DNA from: Rhodospirillales bacterium
GTDB lineage: Bacteria; Pseudomonadota; Alphaproteobacteria; Rhodospirillales; UBA2165
Assembly: GCA_965213765.1 (NCBI GenBank)
Contig: OZ243926.1
Coordinates: 2,370,971-2,434,970 of the forward strand
Direction: 5' to 3'
DNA: 64,000 bases
Made by a program: the position numbers and the translations under genes. The notes under the pieces were generated by a model. That model worked only from the letters and a program-made list of their open reading frames with translations, did no database searches and was not told the DNA's origin. Below, piece by piece: positions 31,486 to 56,141 of this stretch (positions are counted from its first letter, which is position 1; each line of letters begins with the position of its first letter).

Positions 31486-31528
31486 CAGTGCCGAAACCGG
31501 GAGAGGTCAACCAGGGATCAGGCGGAGA

Positions 31529-35554: not shown

Positions 35555-36529
35555 ATGGGCGTCTTCGGCGAGGCAGGTATGGGCACCAACGCGATCATGC
35601 GCGAGACCGGCAAGTCCAAGACTTGCGTCTGGCGCTGGCAGGAGCGCTTTGCTGAAGAGGGCGTAGAGGGCCTGCTGCGCGACAAGACCAGACCCTCGCG
35701 AATTGCGCCGCTGCCGCCCGAGGTGGCCGGGCGGGTGGTGGAACTGACCTTCACCGAGCCGCCCGCCGAGGCCACGCACTGGACCGGAGCGATGATGGCC
35801 GAGGCAGTCGGGATCAGCGTCAGTTCGGTACACCGCATCTGGCGGGCCCACGGCCTGCGGCCGCACCGGGTGCGCCAGTTCAAGCTCTCCAACGATCCCG
35901 AGTTCGTCACCAAGCTGCGCGACGTGGTCGGGCTCTATGTCGATCCCCCCGCCCACGCCATCGTCCTCTCGGTCGATGAGAAGTCGCAGATCCAAGCCCT
36001 CGATCGCACTCAGCCCGGCCTGCCCCTGAAGAAGGGTCGGGCCGGCACCATGACCCACGACTACAAACGCAACGGTACCACCACCCTGTTTGCCGCCCTC
36101 AACGTGCTCGACGGCACCGTGATCGGGCGCTGTATGCAGCGCCACCGTCACCAGGAATTCCTCCGCTTCTTGAAGGCCGTCGAGCGTGAGGCGCCAGTCG
36201 GCAAGATGGTGCACGTGATCCTCGACAACTATGCCGCCCACAAGCATCCCAAGGTGCGCGCCTGGCTCGCCCGTCATCCGCGCTTCGTCTTCCACTTCGT
36301 GCCGACCTCGTGCTCCTGGCTCAACGCCGTCGAGGGATACTTCGCCAAGCTCTCCAGACGCCGTCTCAAGCGCGGTGTCTTCAGATCCGTGGTCGACCTG
36401 CAAACCGCCATCAATCGATTCATCGACGAGACCAATGATGACCCCAAGCCCTTCGTCTGGACCGCCGATCCCGACAAAATTATCGCCGCCGTCAAACGGG
36501 GGCATCAAATGTTAGATTCAATCCACTAG
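35555..36529 (+). mobile_element. IS630-family transposase, probably 5'-truncated element
   Basis: ..THWTGAMMAEAVGIS..SVDEKSQIQALDR..ILDNYAAHKHPKV..FVPTSCSWLNAVEGYF.. The usual N-terminal ~30 aa are missing, and no left-end partner was found for the right end ..ttagattcaatccactag. Confidence 0.85.
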
Positions 36530-36713
36530 CGCAGCTTCTGCTCGAGGATACACGGGTCGTATTGCCGGAATCCGTCCACCGGGATCTTCGCGTTTTCGTC
36601 GACCTGGTTCACGCGGACCAAACTCTCGATCCCACGACATTTGACGTTCCCTTCACCCGAGACGAGGCAACCGATCTTCTCCGCACGGTGTACGGGCTGA
36701 CATAGTCGGAGCG

Positions 36714-37901
36714 TCAATCCTCGACGAGTCTGGAACCGACGTCGTGATCACCCACGAGGTTCCCGCCGATGCTTTCTGTGATGCGCGCCGCAGCGGTCTG
36801 AATCGAGTCCCGCGCCAGATGCGCGTAGCGCGCCGTCGTTTGCACCTGGGTGTGCCCGAGCAGTTTCCCGATCATGGTCAGGCTCTCGCCGAGAGCCAGC
36901 GCACGCGAGGCAAAAGAATGTCTCAGATCGTGGATCCGCACGTCCTCGAGGCCCGCCTGCTTGCGGATGCGCTGCCAGGGGCGTTGCAGGTCGGTGAGGT
37001 GAGAGCCGGGGAGGCGGCCCGCGATGACCCAGGGATTGTCATCGTCACGGGGAATGGCTGACAACACCGCCCGGGCCTCGGGGCCCAGAGGTACGACCCG
37101 TCCGCCGGTCTTGGCGTCGGGAAGCTCGATGCAATCGTCCTTGACGTACTCCCAGCGCAGGAACTGGATCTCCGACAGCCGGCAGCCGGTCAGCAGCAAC
37201 AAGCGGAAGGCGGCGACCGCCGAGGGCATCTCTTCTTCGGCCTCGCGCAGGACCTGGCCCAGCCGTTCCGTCTCTTCCGGCGACAGGAAGCGCTCCCGCT
37301 TGTGCTCCTTGTAGCGCTTGACATGCCGGCAGGGATTGGAGCCGTCGGGTCGCCAGCCCCAGACTTCGGCAAGGGAGAACATTTTGGATAGCACTGCGAG
37401 CGTCCGGTTGGCCTGATAGGGTTTGTCCCGCAGGCCGTGATGCAGGGCGGCAATATCCTTGCGCTGCACCTCCGGAACCTGCAACTCACCGATCACGGGG
37501 TCGACAAACAGCCTCACCGAACGGCGGTACTCTTCCCGGGTGCTCGGCTTGCAGTGGACAGGGACATATTCCTCCAGGAACCTGCGTCCGAGATCAGCCA
37601 TGTTCCGCTCGGCTTCGCGCCGGGCGTCCGCGTCGCGGGGGTCGATGCCTTTCTTCGCGGAAGCCAATATCTCAAGCGCGCGGGCACGCGCCTGATCCGG
37701 GTTCAGAGGCCCATGCGGGCCGATGGTGAACCAGCACAGTTTCCCGGCGATGCGGGTCTGAACGACGTAGCTCTTGCGTCCCGAGCGCCGAACACGCAGG
37801 CCGAAGCCTGTGAGTTCTCCATCCCAATAGACGGTATCCGTCCCACCGGCCTTGACGGCATCGACGGAGCGCTTGGTGATACGGGGGATGCGGTTTGCCA
37901 C
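36714..37901 (-). CDS. int: Tyrosine recombinase, P4-type integrase with DUF4102 arm-binding domain
   Basis: GTG 37901 with an AAGGAG RBS; ..YWDGELTGFGLRVRRSGRKSYVVQ..; catalytic region ..LLLLTGCRLSEI.., ..HDLRHSFAS.., ..LLGHTQVQTTARYAH. Confidence 0.9.
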   Translation of the reverse strand: MANRIPRITKRSVDAVKAGGTDTVYWDGELTGFGLRVRRSGRKSYVVQTRIAGKLCWFTIGPHGPLNPDQARARALEILASAKKGIDPRDADARREAERNMADLGRRFLEEYVPVHCKPSTREEYRRSVRLFVDPVIGELQVPEVQRKDIAALHHGLRDKPYQANRTLAVLSKMFSLAEVWGWRPDGSNPCRHVKRYKEHKRERFLSPEETERLGQVLREAEEEMPSAVAAFRLLLLTGCRLSEIQFLRWEYVKDDCIELPDAKTGGRVVPLGPEARAVLSAIPRDDDNPWVIAGRLPGSHLTDLQRPWQRIRKQAGLEDVRIHDLRHSFASRALALGESLTMIGKLLGHTQVQTTARYAHLARDSIQTAAARITESIGGNLVGDHDVGSRLVED

Positions 37902-37939
37902 GGCATTGCTCCTTGACGGGGGAGGGAGCATGTATCATC

Positions 37940-37960
37940 CTGGCAAACTATTGGCAAACA
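37940..37960. promoter_or_regulatory. TGGCAA direct repeats (candidate arm-type sites or int operator, right arm)
   Basis: ctggcaaactattggcaaaca is identical to 26722-26742 and lies 39-59 nt upstream of the int start. Confidence 0.4.
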
Positions 37961-38090
37961 CTTTCAGGTAAACCACAGCGCATTCCTGCGTACGTCTGTC
38001 GTAGAAAGAATCAATAAATCCCTTGTAATACAACGTTTTATCATACTCCTGCGCACGTGTGCGCATCCTTGTCCACTAGGTGAAATGAAA

Positions 38091-38160
38091 TGAGTAATCT
38101 GAAGGCACAGTGGTTCTAGCCGTCGGGTTGCCGCCGTTCGGCCAAAGCGGCAGCACGGCA
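38091..38160 (-). mobile_element. Right half of the split IS6-type end (transposase C-terminal codons), then truncated
   Basis: tgagtaatctgaaggcacagtggttctagccgtcgggttgccgccgttcggccaaagcggcagc. The reverse complement encodes ..AAALAERRQPDG-stop. Colinear with 17547-17600. Confidence 0.6.
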
Positions 38161-38172
38161 TTGTCCCGATTG

Positions 38173-39474
38173 CTACAATGCGGTTCTCGGCAGCCACAAC
38201 GCTATCTGCGAAAACAGGAGCAGCAGAACCAGCAATACGGTCTGCGCCGCGACAAATGGGATCACGCCCTTATAGATCGTCATCAGCGGCACATCGTTCG
38301 CCATGCCTTTTAGGACAAAGACGTTGATGCCCATCGGCGGCGTTATAAGCGCGAGTTCGACCACAACGACGATCACGATGCCGAACCAAACGGGATCAAA
38401 GCCCAGGCCAATCACCAGCGGGAAAAAGACCGGGATCGTCAACAAGATCATGGCCAGCGTGTCCAGCACGGCACCCAGGACGATGTAAATCAGGAGGATG
38501 ACGATCATCATGCCCATGGGTGTCAGGGATAGCCCCGCCATGAAACTCTCGATCATCGTCGGAACTTGAGCCAGCGCCATAAAATTCTTGAAGATGATGG
38601 CGCCGATCAGGAGCGTAAAGATCATCGCCGTCGTGCGAACGGTATCGAGGAGCGCCGCCATGAAACTGGCGCGGCTCACGCGTCGGCCCAGCAGACCCAA
38701 CAGCCACGCGCCCACCGCGCCGATCCCCGCAGCCTCCGTGGGCGTAAACACGCCGAGATAAATACCGCCCAAAACAACGGTGAAGAGCGCAAGCGTGCCC
38801 CCGATCTTCCGGAAGGCGGCGCGCTTTTCGGCCGCCGTCGACGGCTCGCCCGGCGGCCCCATCGAAGGTCGAACCAGCGTTACCAGCCAAACCACAATAA
38901 GGAAAAGTACGACCAACAGAATTCCCGGAATAACCCCGGCCAAGAAAAGATCGCCGATGCTGGTCTCGGTCAGTATGCCGTAGAGCACCATGATGACGCT
39001 GGGTGGAATGAGGATGCCGATCGTGCCGCCTGCGGCGATCACCCCGGTCGCCAACTGGTCGCTATAGCCGTACCGCCGCATTTCCGGCAGGGCGACCTGG
39101 CTCATCGTGGCGGCGGTCGCGAGCGAAGACCCCGATATGGCACCAAACGCGCCGCAGGCGCCGACGGTCGCCATGCCCAATCCGCCGCGTCGGCCGCCCC
39201 ACCATGTGTTGAAAGCGCTGTAAAGATCGCCGCTCAGCCCGGCACTGGTCGCGAAGAAACCCATCAAAAGGAACAAAGGAATGACACTGAGTTCGAAGTT
39301 GAAGGCGGTTTCGAGCACCGTCTGTCCCAACAAGGCTAGGGCCGCATCCGGTGACAGGATGACCAGCATGCCGAGGAAACCGGCAAGCGCCATCGCGAAC
39401 CCGATATGCATGCCGAACGCCAGCAGCACGAACATAAGCCCGGTGACAAGCAGCGCGGCAAGCGGGGCGCTCAT
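38173..39474 (-). CDS. TRAP transporter large permease (DctM family)
   Basis: 433-aa polytopic protein, paralogous to 14102-15412. Confidence 0.95.
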   Translation of the reverse strand: MSAPLAALLVTGLMFVLLAFGMHIGFAMALAGFLGMLVILSPDAALALLGQTVLETAFNFELSVIPLFLLMGFFATSAGLSGDLYSAFNTWWGGRRGGLGMATVGACGAFGAISGSSLATAATMSQVALPEMRRYGYSDQLATGVIAAGGTIGILIPPSVIMVLYGILTETSIGDLFLAGVIPGILLVVLFLIVVWLVTLVRPSMGPPGEPSTAAEKRAAFRKIGGTLALFTVVLGGIYLGVFTPTEAAGIGAVGAWLLGLLGRRVSRASFMAALLDTVRTTAMIFTLLIGAIIFKNFMALAQVPTMIESFMAGLSLTPMGMMIVILLIYIVLGAVLDTLAMILLTIPVFFPLVIGLGFDPVWFGIVIVVVVELALITPPMGINVFVLKGMANDVPLMTIYKGVIPFVAAQTVLLVLLLLFSQIALWLPRTAL

Positions 39475-40019
39475 GGATCGATCCGTTCCTCAGGGGTCGG
39501 TCTTTGGAACAGCGTCAAGCCCGCCCGGTGGAGGTGGAACAATAGTCCGGCGACCATGGTCAAGCTGCAGGCGGCCATAACCAGCGCGGCCGCCCAGACC
39601 GGCAAGCCCAGTACCTGTGTTTCGTTCAACTCCCGGGTCTGATCGAGCGCCACCAGGAGCAGCTGCCAGCACATCAATGCCGCGATGGTAAGGCTTAGGA
39701 CATGGACGATGACATTGACCAATGCCTGAATCGTGTGGGGCATGATCCGCGTCAGGACGTCGACGCGGATATGGCCCTCCTCGAATGTCGTAAGGCCGAC
39801 GCCGAGAAAAACCAGCATCCCCATCAGCAGGAAGATGATCTCGACGGAACCGGTAATGGGCCGGTTGAATACGAACCGTCCGATGACGTCAATGAATGTG
39901 ACGTACATCATCAGGGCGAGAACCATCGCCGCCCCGATTGCCAGAATGTACGCGACACGCCCGACGAACCGGCCGACAGGGCCTTGTGCCGGTGATTTCG
40001 ATTCGTCGGGGGTATTCAC
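39471..40019 (-). CDS. TRAP transporter small permease (DctQ family)
   Basis: 182-aa four-TM protein with a 4-nt overlap with the DctM gene. Confidence 0.9.
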   Translation of the reverse strand: MNTPDESKSPAQGPVGRFVGRVAYILAIGAAMVLALMMYVTFIDVIGRFVFNRPITGSVEIIFLLMGMLVFLGVGLTTFEEGHIRVDVLTRIMPHTIQALVNVIVHVLSLTIAALMCWQLLLVALDQTRELNETQVLGLPVWAAALVMAACSLTMVAGLLFHLHRAGLTLFQRPTPEERIDP

Positions 40020-40050
40020 ATCGGTGCCGTTTTGACCGTATCGTTGGGCG

Positions 40051-41082
40051 CTACTCGTACTTTTTGACGGTTTTTCGAAGATCGGCCATCGATGCCTTTC
40101 CGTTCAGGCCGGCGGCGTTTGCTTTCTTGATCCAACCCTCCTCGAAGAAGGACGTGACAGACCGGAGTTTGGCGGTATCGGCATCGCCCAGAATGACGAT
40201 CTTGTTGCCGTTCGCGACGGCAGCCTGTTTCGCCTTCGCCTCAACGGCGTCCCAGCGCTGGCCGATCAACTTTGATCCCGACAGTCCGTTGTCGGAGAAC
40301 GCCTTTTGTTGGGCCGGCGTCAAACCGCTCCAGGCCTTTTTGCTCATGGCGATCCAGAAGGCCGTCGAATACAGGCCGTTGGGGATCACCAGGTGATGGG
40401 TGGTCATTTTCGTGAGCCGAAAACCGGCAAGGCCTTCCCACGGAAACTGGGTTGCGTCGACCGTGCCACGTTGAACCGCCTCGGTGACACCGCTCGGCGG
40501 AATGAATACCGGGGCGGCGCCGAGGCGTTTCAGTATCTCGATGCCGATACCGCCGGCCCTCACCTTCAGCCCCTTGAGATCGCCGAGGCCGTTGATCGGC
40601 TTGCGCGAATGATAAAGAAATGGCGCCGGCGTGAAGGCGCCGATCAGCTTGGCGTCGTGAAACTCCTTGTCGGCCTGGCCGGTGCGCATGTACCAGTCCC
40701 ACATGCCGGCTGAACCGGAAGTCGCGTTATTGACCGTAAAGGGAACTTCAATCCCCCGAAACAGCTGAAAACGCTTGGGCGTAAACGCCGCGACACCAAA
40801 GGCGATATCGGCGATTCCTTTCTTGACCAAGTCATACTGGCCGGGCGCCTTGGCCAGGGGCGCTTTCATCAGGTTGATCTTGACCGATCCGCCGGACGCC
40901 TTTTCGATTACGGCGGCCCATATCGGTATCGCCTTTTGCATGTGGTGAACCGGCGGCAGCCAATTCGCCATGCGAAGGTCTTTGGTTTGCGCGGCGGCGC
41001 CACCCGATCCGCCGATTGCGAGACCGGCGGCCGCCGCCAAGGCCAGCACGTAGTTGGGTCTAATTTTCAAGTATTTATTCAT
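40051..41082 (-). CDS. TRAP substrate-binding protein (DctP family)
   Basis: ATG 41082 with an AGGAGG RBS; signal peptide MNKYLKIRPNYVLALAAAAGLAIGGSGGAAA. Confidence 0.9.
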   Translation of the reverse strand: MNKYLKIRPNYVLALAAAAGLAIGGSGGAAAQTKDLRMANWLPPVHHMQKAIPIWAAVIEKASGGSVKINLMKAPLAKAPGQYDLVKKGIADIAFGVAAFTPKRFQLFRGIEVPFTVNNATSGSAGMWDWYMRTGQADKEFHDAKLIGAFTPAPFLYHSRKPINGLGDLKGLKVRAGGIGIEILKRLGAAPVFIPPSGVTEAVQRGTVDATQFPWEGLAGFRLTKMTTHHLVIPNGLYSTAFWIAMSKKAWSGLTPAQQKAFSDNGLSGSKLIGQRWDAVEAKAKQAAVANGNKIVILGDADTAKLRSVTSFFEEGWIKKANAAGLNGKASMADLRKTVKKYE

Positions 41083-41159
41083 TTCATACCTCCTATTGAG
41101 CATTTGTGTTAAGTCTCGCCGCTGTCGGAAGCGGTCGTTTCAAGGACTGGCAGCGAACT

Positions 41160-41822
41160 CTATTCCGCAGCGGCCGCGGCACCGATCACGGCTTGAATCG
41201 CGGCCTCCCATTCTTCCGGATAAAAGCCTTGCGGCCCCTGCGCGGAGCGAAATGTCACTCTGCCCTCCGTATCAACGACGAACAGCCGGTCGGGCCACGC
41301 GCGATAAGCCGCCTCGATCTGGTTGGTCATATCGTCGAGCAGCATCGGCATCTCGAGGTTGAGGGCAAGGACGCATGCCTCCGCCGCGTCGGCCCGCTCA
41401 TCGATGGTCGTCGGTTGATCGATGACGATGCCCAGCTTTGCATTCCGTTCAGAGCGGTAGCCGCCGTCGCTATCCTCCGGATGCGCTTCTTTGATATAGG
41501 CGCAGTAAAAATCGATCTGGTCCTTGTAGGACCGGTAGATATCGTTCAGGCGCACGGCCTGATCACGAAAGGGGGGTCACGTATATGAGCCCATCACCAG
41601 CGCGACGGGCCTGCCCCGCGTTGAGGAAAGCCGGAACATCTCTCCTGTCCGCCGGCCCTTTGCGTCGAGACGCTCGACCTCGAAGTCCGGCGCCTCCGAT
41701 CCGACCGCCGGTGTGCCTTTATCCCATTCGGCCTTTGCGGCCGCGTAAGAGTCGAACTCCTCCTTCGAAATGCCCCAGTTTACCCATGGCCGGGCTGGGA
41801 CTTTATTGTCGAGTTCGGCCAT
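41160..41822 (-). CDS. Iodothyronine-deiodinase-like thioredoxin-fold protein with an in-frame TGA (candidate selenocysteine) at 41577-41579
   Basis: ORFs 41577..41825 and 41160..41555 are in one frame across the TGA: ..GRPVALVMGSYT-TGA-PPFRDQAVRLNDIYRSYKDQIDFYCAYIKEAHPEDS..WPDRLFVVDTEGRVTFRSAQGPQGFYPEEW. Confidence 0.75.
41542..41568 (-). promoter_or_regulatory. Candidate bacterial SECIS stem-loop
   Basis: RNA UCGU-ga-UCAGGC-cgugc-GCCUGA-ACGA starting 8 nt after the UGA: a 4-bp lower stem, 2-nt bulge, 6-bp upper stem and a GU-containing 5-nt loop. Confidence 0.5.
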
Positions 41823-41936
41823 CACTTGTCTCCTCTTGTTGCCGCATCATTAATTTCCGTGTGTCAGTCGCAATGCGTTCCGAATTGCCGGTGCGATTGC
41901 CCCGGCCTCGACCCCATATCACTCTTATCGGAAAGT

Positions 41937-42725
41937 CTAATCATGGCCCCAACTCGATTCACGGATCCATTTGAGAAAAGCCGTGTCGAATTGCGGCCGG
42001 GAACTGACGCGATCGTACCAGGCTTCAACGTTGGGAAATGGGCTGAAGTCGAATTCACCGATTTTCTGCGTTGTGACCGTCGGGGCCCAGGACATGTCCG
42101 CCAGTGTATACACGCCGCCGACAATGTACTCGGAATTGGCCAGAATGCCGTCCATTTCCTGATAAATCTCGTTCATCAGTCTGGTCGCCTCGGCGGCATC
42201 CTCTTCGGTGAGGCTCGATCCGGGCGCACCATGTTTTGCGTGAAATTCCAGGTGGGCGGGATCGGTTTGCAGTTCCCGGTATCGATTATACTCTTCCTCC
42301 GATTTTTCCAGGAGCCTGGCGACGCGTTTATAATATTGAAGCGTCTTGATGCCCGGCAAATGAATCTCACCAGATAATTTGAGCCAACGGTCGATCTTCG
42401 GCTGATCCTCGTCGGCAACCGCGCGAAACCCCGGCTCGGGAAATTGGTCTTCGAGATACGCCATTATATCGTTCGATTCGACGACCACCGTGCCGTCGTG
42501 AACCAGCGCCGGCACCAAGCCTTTCGGATGAATGCCGAAATATTCTTCACTGATGTTTTCCTTGGTCTTGAGATTGATGTGATGGCTGACCCAGGGAAGC
42601 TCCTTCTCCTCAAGCAACAGCCGGACCCGCGCCGAGCAGTTTGAACGATCCGCGTGGTAGAGATGGATACCTTCGAAATCGAGGACGGATTTGTTGGTTG
42701 GCTCAACGATTGGCATGGGTGGCAA
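41937..42725 (-). CDS. Glutathione S-transferase family protein with an N-terminal S-N-C-S motif (Cys-type)
   Basis: ..IHLYHADRSNCSARVRLLLEEKELP..HPKGLVPALVHDGTVVVESNDIMAYL.. Lies upstream of, and co-oriented with, the deiodinase-like gene. Confidence 0.85.
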   Translation of the reverse strand: MPPMPIVEPTNKSVLDFEGIHLYHADRSNCSARVRLLLEEKELPWVSHHINLKTKENISEEYFGIHPKGLVPALVHDGTVVVESNDIMAYLEDQFPEPGFRAVADEDQPKIDRWLKLSGEIHLPGIKTLQYYKRVARLLEKSEEEYNRYRELQTDPAHLEFHAKHGAPGSSLTEEDAAEATRLMNEIYQEMDGILANSEYIVGGVYTLADMSWAPTVTTQKIGEFDFSPFPNVEAWYDRVSSRPQFDTAFLKWIRESSWGHD

Positions 42726-43095
42726 TCCTCCTAAAATCGATCCGGCAGATGCCTATGCATCTGCCAGGACAAAGTCCGCGCCGCCCCGGCACCCACGATG
42801 ACGTAGTCGAATTCCAATTCTTCAGTCATTAAGACCACCTGTTCCCGGATCGTGAGTTCATCTGCCGGAAGCCCCTGTCACTTTGCGAGGCATTGCCGGA
42901 CAGTGCCCCTCAACACTCCTACTGAGTGCGGAACCCTGTTTATTAAATGTGAACCACCTGTTCATTCTTATAGTGAAAGTAAATTCACGTTTATTTTTCA
43001 TTGATTGTCAAGTCCCGCGACTCTACTCTTGGCTAAGGACTGCCGGACAGCTCCAAGTTGGAACTGCCAACAAGCCCCATCCGAAAGCTTGAATT

Positions 43096-43761
43096 TTGAA
43101 CGCAAATATTAGTGATCCGAACGAATTTGAGACGGCAATGAACCAAGGCGTGAAACCTGCAACCCAGCGCCGAAGTCGAGCCCTGCGAGACGCGCTGATC
43201 GAATGCGGCATGGGTCTTCTCAACGAAATGGACCTCGATGACTTGACAATTCCCGCACTGACAAATGCCGCCGGGTGTTCCGTTGGCAGTTTCTACAAAC
43301 GCTTCGAAGACAAAGAGCTCTATTTCCTGGTGCTCAGGGATTCCGTGGTTGCCGAAAACCGCGCCAAGGCTTTCGCTGTTCTCGATCCTGATGAGCTCAA
43401 GAAGTTGCCGTTTCCGGAAGCAACCGACCGGATCGTAGACGCGTTTCTGCAAATTTCGAAAGGACGGGGACGAGGCGTATTGAGATCGGCCTTTGTCAGA
43501 CTCAATTCGGACCCGGCGATCTGGGAGCCGATGCGGGAGACCATTCGTCTGATAAACGAAAATTGTGTAGCGGGACTTGCCGATCGGGTTCCGGCGGATT
43601 CGAGGAATGCGGCCGCGACCAAGGTAAGGGTGGCCGTCCAAATGGTCGGTTCAACCATCACAAACACCTTCGTAAATGCCTGGCATCCGCTCGCGGTAGG
43701 TGAGAAGCCGCTCGCCTCTCACCTCAAAGTAATGGTGAGGGCCTATTTGGCAGCCGACTAA
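43096..43761 (+). CDS. TetR/AcrR-family transcriptional regulator
   Basis: ..LTIPALTNAAGCSVGSFYKRFEDKELYF.. HTH; divergent from the GST operon across an AT-rich spacer. Confidence 0.85.
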   Translation: MNANISDPNEFETAMNQGVKPATQRRSRALRDALIECGMGLLNEMDLDDLTIPALTNAAGCSVGSFYKRFEDKELYFLVLRDSVVAENRAKAFAVLDPDELKKLPFPEATDRIVDAFLQISKGRGRGVLRSAFVRLNSDPAIWEPMRETIRLINENCVAGLADRVPADSRNAAATKVRVAVQMVGSTITNTFVNAWHPLAVGEKPLASHLKVMVRAYLAAD

Positions 43762-43783
43762 CCAAGATACAGGGGATAGTCGT

Positions 43784-44860
43784 ATGAACTTCGAACGGGT
43801 CGGATTACTCCGTTGGGACAAGAAAAAAGCTCAACCCGGCTACACGATATTGGGTAACCTCTATTCGTCGCAGGTGCGCCTCATCGACATGAACGGCGCA
43901 GAGGTTCACACCTGGACATTGCCGGAACCCAGTCAACTTGGTTCGTACGGGCAGCTCCTGCCCGGCGGCAACCTTCTCGTTCCGATCGCATTGTTTCAGG
44001 GCCCTCCATTGCGGACAGCCAAAGGCGGCCGCATCGTCGAGCTCGATTGGAAAGGTAATGTCGTTTGGGAGTATACCGACACCTCCCAGCACCACGACAT
44101 TCGGCGGCTTCCCAATGGCAACACGGTCTACATTGGGTGGCGCGAGATGGCGGACGAGGACGCCGCCCGGGTCCAGGGGGGCGTTCCCGGGACCGAGATG
44201 GAAGGCAAAATTTACGAAGACTATTTTCGGGAAATCTCGCCCGAGGGTGAAACGGTATGGGAATTCGGAACTTCCGAACTGGAGATTGAGAACTATCCCA
44301 TTTCACCCGGCTCACGGCGCTCCGAGTTCGGCCACGCAAACACCATTTGTCCGCTCCCGGACGGCAATCTCCTCGTCAATTTCCGCAATCTCGATACGAT
44401 CGCGATCCTTGGCCGTGAGGAGCGCCGGTTCATTTGGGAAAAGCGTGATATCAGCTGGGGACGAGGCCACGATCCCCAGATGCTCGACAATGGCAACATC
44501 TTGTTCTTTGCGAACGGCGCCCATGACCTCACCTTACCGATGCGCTCCAGCATTATAGAACTGGACGGGAAAAGCGGTGACGAAGTCTGGCGCTACGAAG
44601 CCGACATCGCGTGGACGTTCTTCAGCCATATCATGAGCGGCGTTCAGCCTCAGCCCAACGGCAACCTCTTAATATGCGAGGCCGTCAACGGGCGGGTATT
44701 CGAGATTACGAAGAACGAGGATCATTGCGAGATCGTGTGGGAATACATCAATCCCCGCTTCGAGACGCCGATCATAACAACCAAAAGCAAATGCAACGCC
44801 ATGTTCCGCGCCTATCGCTATTCCCCTGACGGGCCCGAACTCGCGGGGCGTGGCCTATAA
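43784..44860 (+). CDS. Arylsulfotransferase (ASST)-like beta-propeller protein
   Basis: Recurrent LP(G/N/D)GN(L/T)L(V) blades: LPGGNLLV, LPNGNTVY, LPDGNLLV, LDNGNILF, QPNGNLLI. Family call made from memory of ASST proteins. Confidence 0.6.
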   Translation: MNFERVGLLRWDKKKAQPGYTILGNLYSSQVRLIDMNGAEVHTWTLPEPSQLGSYGQLLPGGNLLVPIALFQGPPLRTAKGGRIVELDWKGNVVWEYTDTSQHHDIRRLPNGNTVYIGWREMADEDAARVQGGVPGTEMEGKIYEDYFREISPEGETVWEFGTSELEIENYPISPGSRRSEFGHANTICPLPDGNLLVNFRNLDTIAILGREERRFIWEKRDISWGRGHDPQMLDNGNILFFANGAHDLTLPMRSSIIELDGKSGDEVWRYEADIAWTFFSHIMSGVQPQPNGNLLICEAVNGRVFEITKNEDHCEIVWEYINPRFETPIITTKSKCNAMFRAYRYSPDGPELAGRGL

Positions 44861-44877
44861 TCGAACGAGGACCCAGT

Positions 44878-46788
44878 ATGGTTAAGGCCTACCCACTACC
44901 CGATCCCGGCACCGCCACGAATGTGACGATGGCAGCCAATGCGAAGGTGGCCCAATCGCTTCCGCTGGCCGATCAATCGGACTTCGAGAAAGCCCGCAAA
45001 GGTCTCATCGCTTCGATCGACGGGCCGATCGAGACCGATGACGGCCGTACCGTCATGGATCCAGGCGCCTTTGCCTTTCTTGATGGTCCGGCGGCCGACA
45101 CGGTTAACCCTTCCCTCTGGCGTCAGGGGCAACTCAACGCCATCCATGGCCTGTTCGAAGTTGCGGACGGCATCTACCAGGTCAGGGGGTATGACATTTC
45201 CCTCATGACCTTGATCCGCGGCGAGACCGGCTGGATTATTGTCGATTGTCTGATCTCGATAGAAACCGCTAGAGCCGCCGTGAAGCTGGCGATGGACCAT
45301 CTGGGCGAACGCCCGATCAGCGCGGTGTTGATCACCCATACGCATGCCGACCATTTCGGCGGCAGCCGCGGCGTCTTGACGGACGATATGATCGCCGATG
45401 GCGACATCCCCATAATTGTTCCCGAGGGTTTCACACGATATTCCGTGAGCGAGGCGGTTCTGGCCGGCAACCAAATGGCACGCCGGGCGATGTATCAGTT
45501 CGGTCTCTTGGTGCCCCCGGGGCCCGCCGGCTTTGTAGATAGCGGGATCGGCAAGTCCAACGCGAAGGGCAATCGAAGCTTTGTGTTGCCGACCAAGGAA
45601 ATTTCGAAGACCGGCGAACGGCTGACGGTTGACGGCGTTGAGTTTGTCTTCCAGATGGCCTCAGGCACCGAGGCACCGTCTGAGTTCATATTCTACCTAC
45701 CTCAGCATAAGGCGTTGTGCATGGCCGAGGTCACCTGCCGTACCATGCACAATATTTTGACCTTGCGCGGCGCTGAGGTTCGCGACCCTCTCCAATGGTC
45801 GGCGTGCATCGACGAGTCGCTGAATATGTTTGGCGACGAAGTCGAAATCTATTTCGCCTGTCACAACTGGCCGGAATGGGGAAACGAGAACATCCGCGAG
45901 TACCTGGAAGAGCAGCGCGATATCTATCGCTATATCCATGATCAGACTCTCCGGCTGGCGAACACCGGCTATACACCTCGGGAAATTGCCGAGGAGGTAG
46001 AAGAGCCCGAGTTCATGAAGCAGTCCTTTTCCGTGCGCGGATATTACGGGACGCTGAACCACAATCTGAAAGCAACTTACCAAAAATATTACGGTTACTT
46101 TGATGGCAATCCCGCTCATCTCGAGCCCCACACGCCGGTTGAGGAGGGCAAGAGATACGTCCAGGCGATGGGCGGCAGCGACGCCGTTTTGGACCTCGCA
46201 TGGTCGGCATTCGAAGCGGGAGACTACCGCTGGGCCGCAACGATTCTCAATCACTTGGTCTTCGCTGAGCCTTCTAACGAAACAGCAAGAGCGATGCTGG
46301 CATCGACATATGAGCAGCTCGGTTTCCAAGCGGAGTCGGTCATTTGGCGCAACATCTATCTCTGTGGAGCTCACGAACTACGAGAGGGCGTAAAACCGCG
46401 TCAGAGAGTCGGTGGGGTCAACGAAGATATCGCGCGGGCTATGCCGATCGGTGACTTCTTCAATCTCCTCGCCGTCAAACTCGACCCGGCAAAGGCGAAG
46501 TCTGTCGACTGCGCCATCAATTTTGAACTCACGGACTCGGATGAGAGTGTCGTGGTGACTGTTGGAAAACAGGTCGAGAACCACAAGCTCAATGCGCGGG
46601 ATGATGACGCAGACCTGACCGTTTCACTAACTCGAACTACGCTCAACGATATCGCGTACGGCCGCAGTTCCATTGATGACGCCATGGAGAGTGGCTCGGT
46701 CAATGTGACCGGTAGTGTCGACACGTTTAAGGCCTACCTCGAAATGCACGATACATTCGATTTGTGGTTCAACGTCGTTGAGCCCTAG
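44878..46788 (+). CDS. Alkyl/aryl-sulfatase (MBL-fold, SdsA1/BDS1 type)
   Basis: ..ITHTHADHFGGSRGV.. metallo-beta-lactamase motif, with a dimerisation region and an SCP2-like C-terminus; 636 aa. Confidence 0.9.
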   Translation: MVKAYPLPDPGTATNVTMAANAKVAQSLPLADQSDFEKARKGLIASIDGPIETDDGRTVMDPGAFAFLDGPAADTVNPSLWRQGQLNAIHGLFEVADGIYQVRGYDISLMTLIRGETGWIIVDCLISIETARAAVKLAMDHLGERPISAVLITHTHADHFGGSRGVLTDDMIADGDIPIIVPEGFTRYSVSEAVLAGNQMARRAMYQFGLLVPPGPAGFVDSGIGKSNAKGNRSFVLPTKEISKTGERLTVDGVEFVFQMASGTEAPSEFIFYLPQHKALCMAEVTCRTMHNILTLRGAEVRDPLQWSACIDESLNMFGDEVEIYFACHNWPEWGNENIREYLEEQRDIYRYIHDQTLRLANTGYTPREIAEEVEEPEFMKQSFSVRGYYGTLNHNLKATYQKYYGYFDGNPAHLEPHTPVEEGKRYVQAMGGSDAVLDLAWSAFEAGDYRWAATILNHLVFAEPSNETARAMLASTYEQLGFQAESVIWRNIYLCGAHELREGVKPRQRVGGVNEDIARAMPIGDFFNLLAVKLDPAKAKSVDCAINFELTDSDESVVVTVGKQVENHKLNARDDDADLTVSLTRTTLNDIAYGRSSIDDAMESGSVNVTGSVDTFKAYLEMHDTFDLWFNVVEP

Positions 46789-46828
46789 TGCCGTGTCGAG
46801 AGTAGCCGATTGACTTGAGGAGGATTTG

Positions 46829-47656
46829 ATGGCCCTGGAACTCTATTATCTTGAGGAGACTGACTCGATTTGCTCGAATCGAGTTGTTGTAACCCTGTCC
46901 GAGAAGGGAATTGCCGACTGGGTTCCCCACAAGATGATCCTCATGAACAGGGATCAGTTCACCCCGGAATATCTAAAGCTAAATCCGAATGGCACGGTTC
47001 CGACACTTGTTCACGATGGTGCCGTCATCCGAGAATCTTCTCTGATTTGCAGCTATATTGACAATTTGAAGGCTGATCCGCCGCTGTCGCCCAGTGACCT
47101 GGTTGAGCGCTATCACATGGCCGAATTCATAAAGTTATTTGATGAGCGAGGATTTGCGGCCACCGGGATCATCAACTTCGTGACCAAGTTTCGCCTGACG
47201 ATCCCACGGGACAAATTGGAAGAACGCTGGAAGCACATTCCGGTCATTGATCGCCTTCATCGTCAGCAGTCCGTTATCAGGGAGGGTCTCGACTCCCTTT
47301 ATGTACTGCGTGCCATCGGTGCCTGGGAAACTATCTTCCGGCGGATGGAGGCGGCGCTGGCTGACGGAAGGCCTTATCTTATGGGTGACCAGTTCACGCT
47401 GGCGGAAACCAACTCGGCGACGTTCGTCAAGGTGATCGAAATGATTCGCTTCCTGGATTTCTGGCTTGAGCCCTACCCGAAGACCAGAGAATGGTGGGAC
47501 CGGGTTTCAAGCCGGCCGAGCATGCAGCAACTGGACACTTTTGCGAGTAACGCGGTCTCCGAGGATTCGCCCCATGCCAAGGCTGGGCGCGAGTGTGAAG
47601 CAGGCTTTCGCAATAAAATTGAAAAATACCGGGAGCAATTTGCGCACGCTTTGTAG
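46829..47656 (+). CDS. Glutathione S-transferase family protein with an N-terminal S-I-C-S motif (PcpC/LinD-like Cys-type)
   Basis: MALELYYLEETDSICSNRVVVTLSEKGI..DQFTPEYLKLNPNGTVPTLVHDGAVIRESSLI. Confidence 0.8.
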   Translation: MALELYYLEETDSICSNRVVVTLSEKGIADWVPHKMILMNRDQFTPEYLKLNPNGTVPTLVHDGAVIRESSLICSYIDNLKADPPLSPSDLVERYHMAEFIKLFDERGFAATGIINFVTKFRLTIPRDKLEERWKHIPVIDRLHRQQSVIREGLDSLYVLRAIGAWETIFRRMEAALADGRPYLMGDQFTLAETNSATFVKVIEMIRFLDFWLEPYPKTREWWDRVSSRPSMQQLDTFASNAVSEDSPHAKAGRECEAGFRNKIEKYREQFAHAL

Positions 47657-47764
47657 ATCGGGCTCGTTTACCGCGGTTCCTCAGGGGTCAGGCGTGCACC
47701 CTCCACCCGTGCCTTGCGGGCGCCGCCTGAACACCCCATTTCGTTTTCCGGACAATGATGCCGA

Positions 47765-47789
47765 AAAAGGCCTGGTTTTACGGCCTTTT
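47765..47789 (+). terminator. Hairpin terminator about 110 nt downstream of the GST gene
   Basis: aaaaggcc tggttttac ggcctttt: 8-bp stem with a T-rich 3' arm. Confidence 0.45.
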
Positions 47790-48485
47790 CTCCTTCGGAC
47801 CGGCGGCAAATCCCTTTCGTGTTCCGATCTAACACCGAGCCTTCCAAATACCGGACAATCACGGTCGGTTTGCACACTCTTTGTGGTAGCCGCCGCGGGC
47901 GGAACGTTGGCTTCACCAAGGTGGATCAGGATGGGGGAACGGGGAAACGGCTACAGCGCCCCGAATACGCCCGGCAATACAATTAGCACCAGAGCGCCCA
48001 ATGCCGCCATCTGGTACCCAATCATCCGGATCGGCGCGAAGATGGTCGTCATTCGAAGGCGAATGCACGTCGAGGTGTTTCGAGTCACACTCAATGGGCT
48101 GGGAGGGTTCCATATGGGGAATCCCGGCTTAAAGTAGGGAGCGTGTTAATTCTGTCGCGACTGAGCACTCGTAATTCGTCCCATTTTCTCATTGAATTCC
48201 GATGAACGCCATCCCTTCCGCGTATGTAGACGGCCATATCAGGGCCGCGGCGATAGACCGGGACCTTGCCGATATCTACGTCCGGCACACCCAGATCGGC
48301 GACCCCCTGATGGACGCAGCGGTTGAGGATCTGGCCGCGCTGCCCAGCCCGGAGGTGTCGCGGCTTATCAAGGCCGGCATGGATCAGGACGAATCCATGC
48401 TTCGAGATGCACCTCACCGGCCTAACATTATGGGATATTTGAATCAGTGCGGTTGTTGGGCTCAACACCGTATACGACAACGGCC

Positions 48486-48905
48486 TCACCCCGCGCCAAC
48501 GGGGTTCTCCAAGGTCATGAGTGCCATATCAATCTCGGCAAGACTGACGCTGACGCGTACCGTATCGCCGTCATTGAGGAATTGTGGTGGGTCTTGCTCG
48601 ATCCCGGTTCCGGGGGGCGTGCCGGTAGTGATGACATCGCCGGGTTCAAACGGATACCAGCGCAAAAAGTAGGCGGTCAATTCGGCAATCGCGTGTACGA
48701 AATCACTCGTCAACGCATCCTGCATGACCTGGTCGTTTATCGTCGAGGCTAGTCGTAGAGCGGTCGGGTCCGGGACATCCTCTTTCGTTACGATTGCCGG
48801 ACCAAGCGGACAGAAGGTTGCGAATGAGTTTCCTTGGCGATTGATGTTTCGTCTCCTACGCTCCTCCGTTTCGGCGGCGCCTCGGTTGCGGCGAGCCGCG
48901 CGTTT
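48486..48905 (-). pseudogene. Fumarylacetoacetate-hydrolase-family gene, 5'-truncated
   Basis: ..GNSFATFCPLGPAIVTKEDVPDPTALRL..NDQVMQDALTSDFVH..PFEPGDVITTGTPPGTG.. Only the C-terminal half is present. Confidence 0.7.
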
Positions 48906-49491
48906 ACTGTAGGCGACCAAGTTGACGCCCGGCCCGTGCCCAGCGGCCCCAGACGCGCAAATATTCCGGTAGCATCAGTTCAGCATTTCCGTCGGTGTCG
49001 AGGCCACGGAATATAATTTCGGCAATGCCCTTGTCGCGAACGATGGGGCTTTGAAGAAATTCCTTCCGCGCGACCCGCCGGTCACTGTCGACATCCATGG
49101 CGAAAAAGATCTTCCGTGCTTCGTCGGTGATGACCCGTTGCCACCCGTATTCGTTGGCCGACATCAGGCCGTCGCGGTTCATGTCGGCGGCGGCGAAGAA
49201 TCCCCGGGTGCCGCGTGGGTTGCCTCGAAAGTGACTGTTTTTGCTGTATTCATCGAGGCTGAGATGGCCGTCGCCATTTTCGTCGAGGCGTCGAACGATG
49301 CGATGGAACCCGGCAATGTCTTCCGCCGTAACGCCCTGCTCAAATTTTGCCTGCATGTGGGCCATGATCTGCACTGGCGACAATCCTTCCGCGCCCACGC
49401 CCACAGTCCAGGATACTGCGAGCGCCACAATACAGCCCGACAGGACGGTTCGGCACCAGCCTACCCGCGACGACTCTCTTGAGTATCGCAT
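48904..49491 (-). CDS. Secreted EF-hand calcium-binding protein
   Basis: Signal peptide, then four EF-hand loops: DENGDGHLSLDEY, DMNRDGLMSANEY, DVDSDRRVARKEF, DTDGNAELMLPEY. Confidence 0.8.
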   Translation of the reverse strand: MRYSRESSRVGWCRTVLSGCIVALAVSWTVGVGAEGLSPVQIMAHMQAKFEQGVTAEDIAGFHRIVRRLDENGDGHLSLDEYSKNSHFRGNPRGTRGFFAAADMNRDGLMSANEYGWQRVITDEARKIFFAMDVDSDRRVARKEFLQSPIVRDKGIAEIIFRGLDTDGNAELMLPEYLRVWGRWARAGRQLGRLQ

Positions 49492-49511
49492 GTATATTTC
49501 CCTCGATATCG

Positions 49512-50522
49512 CTATCCCAACGTGACTTGGTATTCGTAGGTTTCAGGGTCGATCAGGTCGTGCCAATCATCGACACCCCCGACGTTCGGTTGAAACGGAT
49601 TTTTGAGATCGCCGCCCTGCTCGAACATCCAGTAATAGCCACCGCGCGGATAATCCTCTATTTGCCAGGCATTCTGGTCGAGATCCGAAAACGTAAATCC
49701 ATAGGTGCCATGGCTGCCGCTGATTTTATGGATGACGTCAAAACCGAACCGCTCTTCGTGCTCGACGACGATCTCTCGCGCGGCATCGACAAATGCTGGT
49801 CCGGCCACATCGAAACCAATGTGATTGTGCATTTTGTGTTCGCGAATTTTGTTGTCGGTCTCGATGACGTCGATGACGGCGACGCTGTTGAGCCGCGCCA
49901 ACATGCGCTTGGGACCCAACTCGACCGTCTCGAAGCCGAACATTTCTTCATAGAAGTCGCGGGATTTCGAGATATCGACGACTTCGCAGGTGAGGTGCGA
50001 CATGAGCTTGAGATCGAGCACCGCGCGGCCGATTGTGTCGCTGCCCTCGCCCAGCGGTGGAAAAGAACACAGTGCGTGGGTCGTGTCGCAGACGTCGGTG
50101 AACCGATCAGCGTATCCACCGACGGGGTTTTCGAGAATTTCCCAGTAGTTGCCATCCTGGTCGCGCAGCATGAAGCACAAACCGTTTTCATCTTCGCTGA
50201 GTTCGCCGACTTCTTGGATGTTGAATACCGCCTGGTTTTCGAGGGAAAGTTCCCGCGCCTCCCTCACGGCCTCACCGGTTGGCACGTCAAAACCGAAATG
50301 CGCGTTCCGGAGCCACGGCCGATCGGCCTTTGCCAGCCCCTTTTCGCCCAGCGTCACGCCGACGATGGCGGTGTTGCTGCCGAGCCGTGCCACTAAGGTG
50401 CGTTTTGACGTCTTCAGCACATCGAGACCAAGAAAGTCGCGGTAGAAGCGCACCGATTCGTCGACATCCTTTAGTGTCGCATGCCCGTGCGACAGGAATG
50501 GCAGGTCCAACAATGGTTTCAC
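49512..50522 (-). CDS. Two-domain VOC (glyoxalase/dioxygenase) family protein
   Basis: ..FLSHGHATLKDVDESVRFYRDFLGLDV.. and ..MSHLTCEVVDISKSRDFYEEMFGFE. Confidence 0.8.
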   Translation of the reverse strand: MKPLLDLPFLSHGHATLKDVDESVRFYRDFLGLDVLKTSKRTLVARLGSNTAIVGVTLGEKGLAKADRPWLRNAHFGFDVPTGEAVREARELSLENQAVFNIQEVGELSEDENGLCFMLRDQDGNYWEILENPVGGYADRFTDVCDTTHALCSFPPLGEGSDTIGRAVLDLKLMSHLTCEVVDISKSRDFYEEMFGFETVELGPKRMLARLNSVAVIDVIETDNKIREHKMHNHIGFDVAGPAFVDAAREIVVEHEERFGFDVIHKISGSHGTYGFTFSDLDQNAWQIEDYPRGGYYWMFEQGGDLKNPFQPNVGGVDDWHDLIDPETYEYQVTLG

Positions 50523-50620
50523 GATGTATCCCCTTGGAAAAATTCAACAATCGCTACGTGTCGAGCCACATTTCGTGCAGGTGACTCATTTTGAAGACCG
50601 ATGTCTTCGGGCCCTTCACA

Positions 50621-50839
50621 TAGGTCTTCGAAAATTGCCCGCATCACGTTGAGCTTGGTTGGGAAGACGTTGGGATTGGTCGCTGCATCAAAACCATTGA
50701 AGTTGCGGTTCATGGCGACCCGTAGGGTGCCGCCGCGCTTGGCCTGGGCCCATGATTCGGCGGCGACGGTGAATATGATCCCGGTCGCCAAAACCGCAGC
50801 CGACAACGCCGACAACGCAGAGCGATAATTGCCGGATAC
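50621..50839 (-). pseudogene. N-terminal stub of a paralogous family-5 ABC substrate-binding protein
   Basis: ..AKRGGTLRVAMNRNFNGFDAATNPNVFPTKLNVMRAIFEDL parallels residues 38-79 of the gene at 23931. Confidence 0.7.
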
Positions 50840-50952
50840 AGGGGCTGTAAGGCGAAATATGGCAACCTCCCAATCAAAATCGTATACGAAATTTATTATA
50901 ATGTATGACAAAATTTTGAATAATGTCTACAGCAAATTTTGAGGCGGCTGAG

Positions 50953-51246
50953 CCTGAGCGATGGTGACACGCGCCAACAACATTCGAGATGCAACCTCAC
51001 CGCAGCGCTGTCGTGGCCGAAGCCAGTGTCGGTCAGGTCATTGAGATGTATGAGGTGCTGGCGGAGCTGGAAGGCCTGTGCGCTCGACTTGCTGCGCGCC
51101 GTATGACCGATGCCGAACGTGGCAGGTTGCGCGCGCAGCATGTTGCGATAGCGCGCTGCTTGGAGCGGGACGATCGCGATGCCTTCCCCGCACTCAATAA
51201 GGAATTTCACGACATGATCGACGCGGGTGTGGCCTGCCCCCATTAA
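50953..51246 (+). pseudogene. GntR paralogue remnant (HTH deleted, 3' end cut by an IS-end-like repeat)
   Basis: MVTRANNIR is joined out of frame to MQPHRSAVVAEASVGQVIEMYEVLAELEGLCARLAARRM.. Compare 24041-24452. Confidence 0.75.
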
Positions 51247-51284
51247 GTGGTCCAACGCTTAAGTTAGAGTTTGGCGCGGTTGAG
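51230..51284 (+). repeat. Solo IS-end-like repeat (copy 2)
   Basis: tggcctgcccccattaagtggtccaacgcttaagttagagtttggcgcggttgag; see 26522-26577. Confidence 0.45.
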
Positions 51285-51622
51285 GCTCTACCAAAAACAG
51301 TACCAGCCTGGATGTCAGAATCCGGCGGTTCGCATGGAAAAAAGTGGTGGTGGGCGCAGTCTGATGCGAACCCGTCTCCGGCGGATTTGCCGGTTAGCCA
51401 GGGAATATATAAAGGGAAATTGTCTAAGATATGGCTTGGACCCAGGTAGTTCTATGCCCGCAAGGCTCCGTCAAAAGGCGGAACTGGAATTCCATTCCCT
51501 GGTTCGAAACAGGGAATTTCTCCAGCATGTACAACAAAAAATGGGAGAATGTAATTTGAAACGTCGTAAATTGAATCAACATTCGGAGCAAGATTCCCTA
51601 TATGCACGCATAGGGCACAACA

Positions 51623-54816: not shown

Positions 54817-54944
54817 CTCATTCAAGCAATCATTTGCCAGAATTATTTGTCATGGGCAATATTTTGCTCGTCTCAACCGATGCCCGTAGCCTGGGCTGTA
54901 GATTTCGTTCAACAAATTCAATTGGTTATTATTTTATGCGGAAT

Positions 54945-54960
54945 TGGCATCGGCATTGCA
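54945..54960 (+). promoter_or_regulatory. Sigma-54 (-24/-12) promoter for the TAXI-TRAP operon
   Basis: TGGCAT-cggca-TTGCA matches TGGCAC-N5-TTGCW; about 80 nt upstream of ATG 55040. Confidence 0.7.
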
Positions 54961-55039
54961 TTGCCTACCTGCGACGGGCCTAAAACACAATTACAGCCCG
55001 GGATCATTCAAACAGTAGGCTAACGCTAGGAGACATCTC

Positions 55040-56050: not shown

Positions 56051-56141
56051 CCGGACACGTATCAGGAAGTTGCGGTGGCCGGCTGGCGGCCGGCCATCGC
56101 AACCATTCGCTACCGCCTGACATCTCTTTAAGATACGAGCC

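Follow-up and report, generated by a model that had tools for sequence, protein, structure and literature searches.

A TetR-associated gene cluster joining sulfate ester enzymes, Cys-type glutathione transferases and a deiodinase-like selenoprotein in a Rhodospirillales bacterium

The stretch of 64,000 nt analyzed here, from the genome of a Rhodospirillales bacterium (assembly GCA_965213765.1, contig OZ243926.1, positions 2,370,971 to 2,434,970), is referred to as the window; coordinates are given on it, and L and P numbers label comparison loci and proteins. It carries two divergent gene sets. One holds a TetR-family regulator, a protein resembling arylsulfate sulfotransferases (ASST-like), an alkylsulfatase and a Cys-type glutathione S-transferase (GST2), and the other holds a second such transferase (GST1), a deiodinase-like selenoprotein and a tripartite ATP-independent periplasmic (TRAP) transporter (Table 1). 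The best explanation of this locus, which we regard as about evenly balanced between right and wrong, is a mobile, TetR-controlled cluster that takes up anionic organic sulfate esters, probably aromatic or benzylic ones, and processes them in the cytoplasm. The functional linkage of the cluster genes and the sulfate ester theme are supported. Under this explanation the TRAP system would import an organic anion, and its sulfate ester would be removed by hydrolysis through the sulfatase, by sulfuryl transfer through the ASST-like protein with its conserved His, or by both. The Cys-type GSTs would use glutathione to displace sulfate or halide as the leaving group, and the selenolate of the selenoprotein could either remove a halogen reductively, as in deiodinases, or resolve a glutathione or sulfuryl adduct. 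TetR would repress both arms until a substrate or intermediate binds. The bond attacked by the selenoprotein may be a carbon-halogen bond, one to the sulfur of a conjugate with glutathione, or one in a sulfuryl adduct.

The sulfate ester theme is robust because the right arm is kept as a cassette across lineages and because more distant ASST-like genes have sulfur-gene neighbors. Six lineages with ASST-like proteins 53-97% identical to that of the window were compared (L007; L008; L009-L011; L100; L179, from Marinobacterium sp. YM272; and the Planktomarina-labelled L181/L182). In all six, the ASST-like gene has an alkylsulfatase and a TetR-like regulator gene no more than ~3 kb away, and orthologues of GST1, GST2 or both (67-96% identity) occur in four. 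Positions 2974-7671 of L007 align with 42965-47662 of the window (88.8% nucleotide identity), with sharp limits to the homology on both sides. The block from TetR to GST2 behaves as a discrete 4.7-kb cassette with an exchangeable left arm, which is a TAXI-type TRAP system in L007 versus GST1, the deiodinase-like gene and DctPQM in the window. L008 has GST1 divergent from TetR, as in the window, and in L100 orthologues of the DctP (51%) and DctM (65%) of the window come after the ASST-like gene. GST1 and the TRAP system belong with the sulfate ester cassette and not with the deiodinase-like gene. Frequent additions to the cassette are a GMC oxidoreductase, an aldehyde dehydrogenase, a type-I sulfatase, TRAP or TAXI transporters and a sulfotransferase of the type dependent on 3'-phosphoadenosine 5'-phosphosulfate (PAPS), the last of these inside the cluster in L010 and L100. 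In the wider ASST-like family the recurrent neighbors are a type-I sulfatase (seven loci), a GMC oxidoreductase (six), PAPS_reduct (five) and ATP-sulfurylase (five), and these four, together with TRAP genes, also recur around the more distant ASST-like genes (39-50% identity).

The index of the contig collection lists the Planktomarina-labelled ASST-like protein in 259 blocks, and the cassette of TetR, ASST-like protein, alkylsulfatase and Cys-type GST in marine bacteria may mark an unrecognized marine turnover of organic sulfate esters. A literature search returned no description of clusters that join an arylsulfotransferase, an alkylsulfatase and a GST. In L181, genes for PIG-L, RraA-like, PrpF and Amidohydro_2 proteins (1049-4407) lie directly upstream of the GMC-GST-alkylsulfatase/ASST-like cassette, a set typical of protocatechuate or gallate 4,5-cleavage pathways.

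Table 1. Cluster genes, sequence elements and adjacent mobile-element genes in the window
Feature	Position	Strand	Evidence or remark
DctM, TRAP transporter large permease	38173-39474	minus	Pfam DctM 332 bits
DctQ, TRAP transporter small permease	39471-40019	minus	Pfam DctQ 87.1 bits; 4-nt overlap with DctM
DctP, TRAP solute-binding protein	40051-41103	minus	Pfam DctP 99.6 bits
Deiodinase-like selenoprotein gene	41160-41825	minus	Selenocysteine (Sec, U) codon TGA 41577-41579; motif GSYT-U-PPF
Candidate bacterial selenocysteine insertion sequence (SECIS) stem-loop	41542-41568	minus	Starts 9 nt past UGA; loop CGUGC
GST1, Cys-type GST of LigF-like length	41937-42725	minus	Motif S28-N-C30-S31
AT-rich divergent control region	42726-43095	unstranded	TetR-proximal part 42965-43095 conserved
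TetR-family regulator	43096-43761	plus	TetR_N 22.8 bits (cut-off 24)
ASST-like six-bladed beta-propeller, without signal peptide	43784-44860	plus	Pfam above gathering cut-offs
Type-III (metallo-beta-lactamase-fold) alkylsulfatase	44878-46788	plus	Three Pfam domains; THTHADH metal motif
GST2, Cys-type GST	46826-47656	plus	Motif S14-I-C16-S17
Tyrosine integrase beside cluster	36714-37931	minus	Pfam Phage_integrase and Arm-DNA-bind_3
DDE_3 transposase	35555-36529		Pfam DDE_3

All six genes named in an earlier, sequence-only reading of this DNA are present at the positions it gave, and their family assignments survive profile search, that of TetR being borderline. The ASST-like assignment is carried by matches to Arylsulfotrans (PF05935; 37.1 bits, cut-off 24.2) and Arylsulfotran_2 (PF14269; 37.0 bits, cut-off 27). 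The AlphaFold2 model (pLDDT 92.6) is a six-bladed propeller with Cpz4 (9kf4) and E. coli AssT (3elq) as top Foldseek matches (E 1.5e-14 and 1.2e-10). In a profile alignment H184, R201 and H229 align with AssT H356, R374 and H436, and the three residues are invariant in 33 ASST-like homologues. His436 of AssT is the histidine that is transiently sulfurylated. At 358 aa versus 571 aa in AssT, the protein aligns through its propeller only, and an N-terminal hydrophobic signal is not visible. Compared with the PAPS-independent ASSTs, AssT of E. coli and Cpz4 of Streptomyces, the beta-propeller fold and the aligned His, Arg and His are alike, but identity is 13-17% and the window protein is a minimal propeller that lacks the AssT N-terminal domain and export signal.

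The neighboring sulfatase carries the domains Lactamase_B, Alkyl_sulf_dimr and Alkyl_sulf_C and matches SdsAP, Pisa1, YjcS and SdsA1 over its full length (E 1e-183 to 1e-167). It is an unambiguous type-III alkylsulfatase. The earlier label of an alkyl/aryl-sulfatase holds for its alkyl part; the aryl part is not supported, as the family is known for alkyl sulfates. Alkyl-sulfate catabolism in Pseudomonas (SdsA1, SdsAP, Pisa1) uses the same sulfatase family, and the GMC oxidoreductase, aldehyde dehydrogenase and TetR added in related cassettes extend the likeness. GMC oxidoreductases and aldehyde dehydrogenases fit the alcohol-oxidation steps that follow hydrolysis of sodium dodecyl sulfate. 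The systems differ in that the enzyme here has no signal peptide and comes with an ASST-like protein in every case and with Cys-type GSTs as a rule, and in that the window is without alcohol- and aldehyde-oxidizing genes.

The conserved equivalent of the sulfohistidine also bears on a different scheme, reductive desulfation for sulfur assimilation, which we consider decidedly improbable. Here the ASST-like protein would transfer the sulfuryl group of an ester onto a thiol or selenol. The Cys-type GSTs and the thioredoxin-fold selenoprotein would then reduce the S- or Se-sulfonate so formed to sulfite, in chemistry resembling that of PAPS reductase. The recurrence of ATP-sulfurylase and PAPS_reduct beside distant ASST-like genes fits such a scheme, as do a SulP sulfate permease near the Marinobacterium cassette and the circumstance that all partners are thiol or selenol proteins. 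The scheme is purely inferential, however; we know of no precedent for such a reaction, and the hydrolytic sulfatase of the cassette would free sulfate directly.

Both GSTs match GST_N and GST_C and are 28% identical to each other. The S-x-C-S motifs picked out in the sequence-only reading are present in both, as SNCS in GST1 and SICS in GST2, and the Ser and Cys of the motif are invariant in 23 of 23 orthologue copies in which the position is aligned. GST1 orthologues (59-80% identity) occur in L008, L009-L011, L181, L006 and L013, and GST2 orthologues (58-96%) adjoin ASST-like genes in L007, L008, L009-L011, L181 and L153. Neither protein reaches the maleylacetoacetate isomerase equivalog TIGR01262 (GST1 69.4 and GST2 50.8 bits against a cut-off of 171); the alignment to this model covers the N-terminal domain only, the N-termini being zeta-class-like. 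The only chain of solved structure that aligns end to end is the beta-etherase LigF (4xt0; GST1 residues 37-250, E 1e-14; GST2 residues 19-236, E 3e-11).

This match recalls the LigDEFG beta-aryl-ether cleavage system of Sphingobium. Further points of likeness are a short-chain dehydrogenase/reductase (SDR) beside the GSTs in L153 and L006, which recalls LigD, and the thiol-dependent, LigG-like removal of glutathione that would be needed. Unlike that system, the window has no SDR and its sulfate ester enzymes are without a Lig counterpart, and the E-values reach only ~1e-11 to 1e-14.

A second system for comparison is the bbd cluster of plasmid pBAM2 in Aminobacter sp. MSH1, which serves 2,6-dichlorobenzoate catabolism and likewise joins a regulator, a DctPQM TRAP importer, ~255-aa GSTs with S-x-C-S motifs and a mobile element. 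It is without ASST-like, sulfatase and deiodinase-like genes, adds a Rieske oxygenase, a VOC dioxygenase, a fumarylacetoacetate (FAA) hydrolase and a glutathione reductase, and its GSTs are only 27-31% identical to GST1 and GST2 over most of their length. One of them, BbdI (motif SACS; the other pBAM2 GST has STCS), reaches 42% identity over the first 120 residues of GST2. BbdI has been reported to be a glutathione-dependent thiolytic dehalogenase (PMC8460812), and the window GSTs resemble it in the S-x-C motif and in overall length.

The likeness to BbdI is among the evidence for a rival explanation that we hold to be unlikely, in which the cluster degrades halogenated, sulfated phenolics through reductive or thiolytic dehalogenation by the Cys-type GSTs and the selenoenzyme. 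Possible substrates would be bromophenol or halotyrosine-derived sulfate esters, for instance red-algal lanosol-type benzyl or aryl disulfates. The sequence-only reading had proposed this substrate class; it is plausible, yet no observation requires a halogen, and the sulfatase belongs to an alkyl family. GSTs of this build also include LigF, and no dehalogenase-specific GST model of NCBIfam is matched by either protein. The earlier idea of Cys-type GST dehalogenases gains a characterized relative in BbdI. The parallel to PcpC is a lead only, as the PcpC sequence compared, 23-27% identical, is not an authenticated one. A tblastn search of plasmids with this PcpC sequence returned only relatives of less than 33% identity. 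Among the neighborhoods, a protocatechuate-4,5-cleavage-type gene set adjoining the Planktomarina cassette and the aromatic-ring genes beside close deiodinase-like relatives (described below) speak for halogenated phenolics.

The selenoprotein bears on this rival and on the preferred explanation alike. Two minus-strand open reading frames (ORFs), 41577-41825 and 41160-41555, form a single frame broken by one TGA (LVMGSYT*PPFRDQ). The deiodinase-like assignment is borne out by Pfam T4_deiodinase (PF00837; 77.7 bits, cut-off 27, profile positions 75-231 of 237) and by an alignment of 166 residues with the catalytic domain of mouse Dio3 (4tr3; E 2.9e-16). The protein is a true member of the family, with GSYT-TGA-PPF and YIKEAHPED kept, which favors a halogenated substrate. 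Against this, 'DQPTT', 'LEMPM' and 'SAQGPQG' in the window protein face 'PQHRS', 'PGCAL' and 'GGRGPDG' of Dio3 in the alignment, at positions that presumably bind the amino-acid moiety of the substrate or relay protons in Dio3; this may point to another substrate. The NCBIfam model NF038285 (deiodinase_rel, a hypothetical equivalog) is matched at 172 bits, below its 250-bit cut-off, and at model positions 175-340 of 347 only; the window protein is without the N-terminal half of the model. Its N-terminal part also matches AhpC-TSA (E 2e-10).

The earlier proposal of a selenoprotein can be upheld. Of 92 homologous loci, 88 have TGA at the Sec position; the other four have TGT or TGC for Cys, and P0030, P0031 and P0044 are Cys forms. 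The stem-loop 9 nt past the UGA folds with z = -2.5 relative to shuffles, and a stem of the type CAGGCC-GUGCG-CCUG recurs in the homologues; in the sequences listed, compensating changes can be made out by eye. Judged by its sequence and that of its homologues, the gene is a genuine selenoprotein gene. Rfam gave no match in 36000-52000, the SECIS-like hairpin included, and the window holds no tRNA gene. Most database homologues are fragments of ~131 residues that begin just past the TGA. In some metagenome gene calls (P0002, P0007, P0019 and P0020) the Sec TGA is translated as Trp (GSYTWPPF), and these full-length forms are mis-translated selenoproteins. Two Rhodospirillaceae or alphaproteobacterial metagenome-assembled genomes each hold two nearby deiodinase-like TGA genes (L014 at 10225 and 9582, on opposite strands; L024 at 469 and 1149).

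Bacterial deiodinase-like selenoproteins were predicted by bioinformatics in 2005 (PMC1088965), and a 2026 review counts them among the selenoproteins of largely unknown function (PMC13188914). Their genes are rare, with 415 deiodinase-like stretches in 596 Gb of genomes. The window protein shares its Pfam family and Sec in the identical motif with the vertebrate iodothyronine deiodinases, and the cluster juxtaposes the chemistry classes of deiodination, sulfation and desulfation, as thyroid-hormone metabolism does; the window protein differs in being soluble and without a membrane anchor, and in the changed Dio3-aligned positions.

Conservation of the neighborhood had been suggested as a check on the linkage, and the outcome was mixed: the cassette partners do co-occur elsewhere with deiodinase-like genes, but most deiodinase-like genes are without these neighbors. 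A deiodinase-like gene, a GST and an ASST-like gene stand together in two further independent loci. In L153 a LysR gene is divergent from a single operon, on one strand, of the deiodinase-like gene (with TGA), a GST2-like gene (58%), an SDR and an ASST-like gene (42%). L006 has, on one strand, a GST, an SDR, a GST, an ASST-like gene and GST1 (63%), then an insertion sequence (IS) element and the deiodinase-like gene (74%); its SDR is 80% and its ASST-like copy 68% identical to those of L153. In L013 a GST1 orthologue (59%) is divergent from a MarR gene followed by the deiodinase-like gene (56%). In L043 and L051 a LysR gene is divergent from the deiodinase-like gene, with an alkylsulfatase homologue directly downstream. 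By rough arithmetic, chance adjacency of the deiodinase-like gene to these partners is very unlikely; given the rarity of the family and the identity of only 42-74% among the recurrences, neither chance nor a single recent transfer is a likely origin.

The closest relatives with long context, L005 and L006 (deiodinase-like proteins 68-74% identical), lie in clusters with a FAD_binding_3 aromatic hydroxylase, an extradiol-type VOC dioxygenase, an FAA hydrolase, a GST and TRAP genes. A Pcp-like hydroquinone pathway was considered for these clusters and rejected, as the VOC protein of L005 best matches 3b59, an uncharacterized Novosphingobium protein, and extradiol dioxygenases and not PcpA. A general partner of the deiodinase-like gene was also sought across 84 loci, but their neighbors proved heterogeneous.

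Several observations weigh against the preferred explanation of a sulfate ester cluster in which all of these genes take part. Among 80 genomic deiodinase-like loci (relatives at 40-68% identity) the ASST-like gene is found in none and an alkylsulfatase in two, and among 80 metagenomic ASST-like loci a deiodinase-like gene occurs in one only. L148 and L155, close to L153 in their ASST-like gene, are without it. The neighbors of the deiodinase-like gene are heterogeneous across the 84 loci, the commonest being an SDR (16 of 84), and the L006 copy of the ASST-like gene, from a 7x assembly, has two in-frame stops. The deiodinase-like gene is thus an occasional partner of the cassette, and the association is sporadic. 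The known substrates of the SdsA1/Pisa1 sulfatase family are alkyl, not aryl, sulfates. The locus is a mosaic beside an integrase and a gene fragment, and the window is without ring-cleavage, GMC and aldehyde dehydrogenase genes, so that no complete pathway is present. Since ring-cleavage and alcohol-oxidizing genes are missing from the window, the cluster would be at most a peripheral or detoxifying module. A homologue search of the window likewise returned no counterpart of the GMC oxidoreductase, aldehyde dehydrogenase, PAPS sulfotransferase, TauD, SDR or FAD-monooxygenase of related loci.

A further rival is a fortuitous mosaic, in which mobile elements would have placed the cassette next to a deiodinase-like redox gene that has nothing to do with it, such as one for a peroxiredoxin-like antioxidant, and the two would have no common pathway. 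The AhpC-TSA match is in line with such a role, most members of the deiodinase-like family are without the partners seen here, and the cluster has an integrase, a transposase and a fragment of an FAA-hydrolase gene at its flanks. The left arms of the window and L007 differ despite a cassette that is 89% identical, and the deiodinase-like genes of L001-L004 lie on integrase-bearing elements. This explanation is nevertheless improbable in our judgment. In the window, GST1 and DctP stand on either side of the deiodinase-like gene, 111 and 56 nt away, and each of these two flanking genes has orthologues that go with the cassette in other loci. The recurrences in L153 (as an operon), L006, L013 and L043/L051 involve proteins 42-74% identical and are not copies of one recent event.

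The halogenated-phenolic alternative, for its part, has to contend with the many cassette loci, the majority, that are without a deiodinase-like gene. A more far-reaching claim, put forward here only as a doubtful possibility, gives the deiodinase-like selenoprotein a catalytic part in a glutathione-linked route that acts on organic sulfate esters or organohalides. As part of that claim, its selenolate would remove a halogen from a halophenolic intermediate or cleave a glutathionyl or sulfuryl adduct formed by the Cys-type GSTs and the ASST-like protein. If true, this claim would give a first physiological role to a selenoprotein family that has lacked a function since 2005, and it would suggest a bacterial catabolic antecedent for the trio of deiodination, sulfation and desulfation in thyroid-hormone metabolism.

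The locus and its recurrences (L153, L006, L013 and L043/L051) offer a first testable lead to the role of bacterial deiodinase-like proteins, as they name the partner enzymes, a regulator and a transporter through which that function becomes testable. The sequence-only reading was unaware of a bacterial operon of this composition, and in agreement with this a literature search found no description of the combination; a search for bacterial deiodinase-like dehalogenases also found no relevant description. Each gene family is known, and it is the cassette and its recurrent link to deiodinase-like genes for which no description was found in the literature.

The extent of the two arms and their regulation follow from the gene arrangement. 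The left unit had been described as GST1 and the deiodinase-like gene; both genes belong to it, but the unit is longer and continues through DctPQM (38173-41103), in the order GST1, deiodinase-like gene, DctP, DctQ and DctM, with the integrase next. The three Dct genes are contiguous and provide all three TRAP components. The best solved relatives of DctP are 4p56, 7nr2 and 5i5p, presumably aromatic-acid binders, which would speak for the halogenated-phenolic rival. Gaps within the left arm are 111 nt between GST1 and the deiodinase-like gene and 56 nt between that gene and DctP, and those of the right arm, from TetR to GST2, are 22, 17 and 37 nt. Matches to promoter and terminator consensus sequences are no commoner than in shuffled sequence, and co-transcription is for this reason inferred from gene spacing only.

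The divergent region of ~370 bp is AT-rich, as had been proposed: its G+C content of 50.3%, against 60.1% overall in the window, ranks among the lowest 2.6% of 370-bp windows. It contains an inverted repeat, GTGAA-N6-TTCAC, at 42973-42988, inside the stretch upstream of TetR that is conserved between the window, L007 and L008, and a perfect palindrome with an 11-bp stem at 42742-42767, just upstream of GST1. The repeat and the palindrome are candidate operators on sequence grounds. The regulator scores just short of the TetR_N cut-off, a borderline match, and the positional equivalents in L100 and L179 do match TetR_N. All related loci examined have an orthologue of the regulator (35-86% identity) or a positional equivalent next to the ASST-like gene; the orthologue in L008 matches no Pfam family.

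Base composition and flanking genes point to the history of the locus. The cluster has 56.8% G+C against 60.1% for the window and, together with the integrase, the transposase and a gene fragment, this makes the locus a mosaic genomic island, probably acquired. A megablast comparison of 38000-48000 with plasmids gave no match. In four metagenome contigs (L001-L004, 770-10400), a deiodinase-like gene 72% identical to that of the window occurs with an integrase, a Prim-Pol protein and IS elements, beside an SBP_bac_5 binding protein; this company shows the deiodinase-like gene itself to be mobile.

Beyond GST2, a stretch of ~800 bp (from 47663) holds no convincing gene. The ORF at 48486-48920 (minus strand) that follows covers no more of the FAA-hydrolase domain than its C-terminal half and is a gene fragment, a scar of rearrangement. 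Next to it, 48904-50522 (minus strand) encodes a 195-aa EF-hand protein with a hydrophobic N-terminus and a 336-aa two-domain VOC/glyoxalase protein, the latter with no similarity to the dioxygenases beside the deiodinase-like genes of L005 and L006. Farther right, 51623-58322 encodes a Cache-domain histidine kinase and a sigma-54 response regulator, then a TAXI-type TRAP system with an NMT1_3 binding protein and a fused DctQM, and is a second, separately regulated transporter locus. On the other side of the cluster, 29366-32020 holds an ORF of 884 aa with five Calx-beta repeats.

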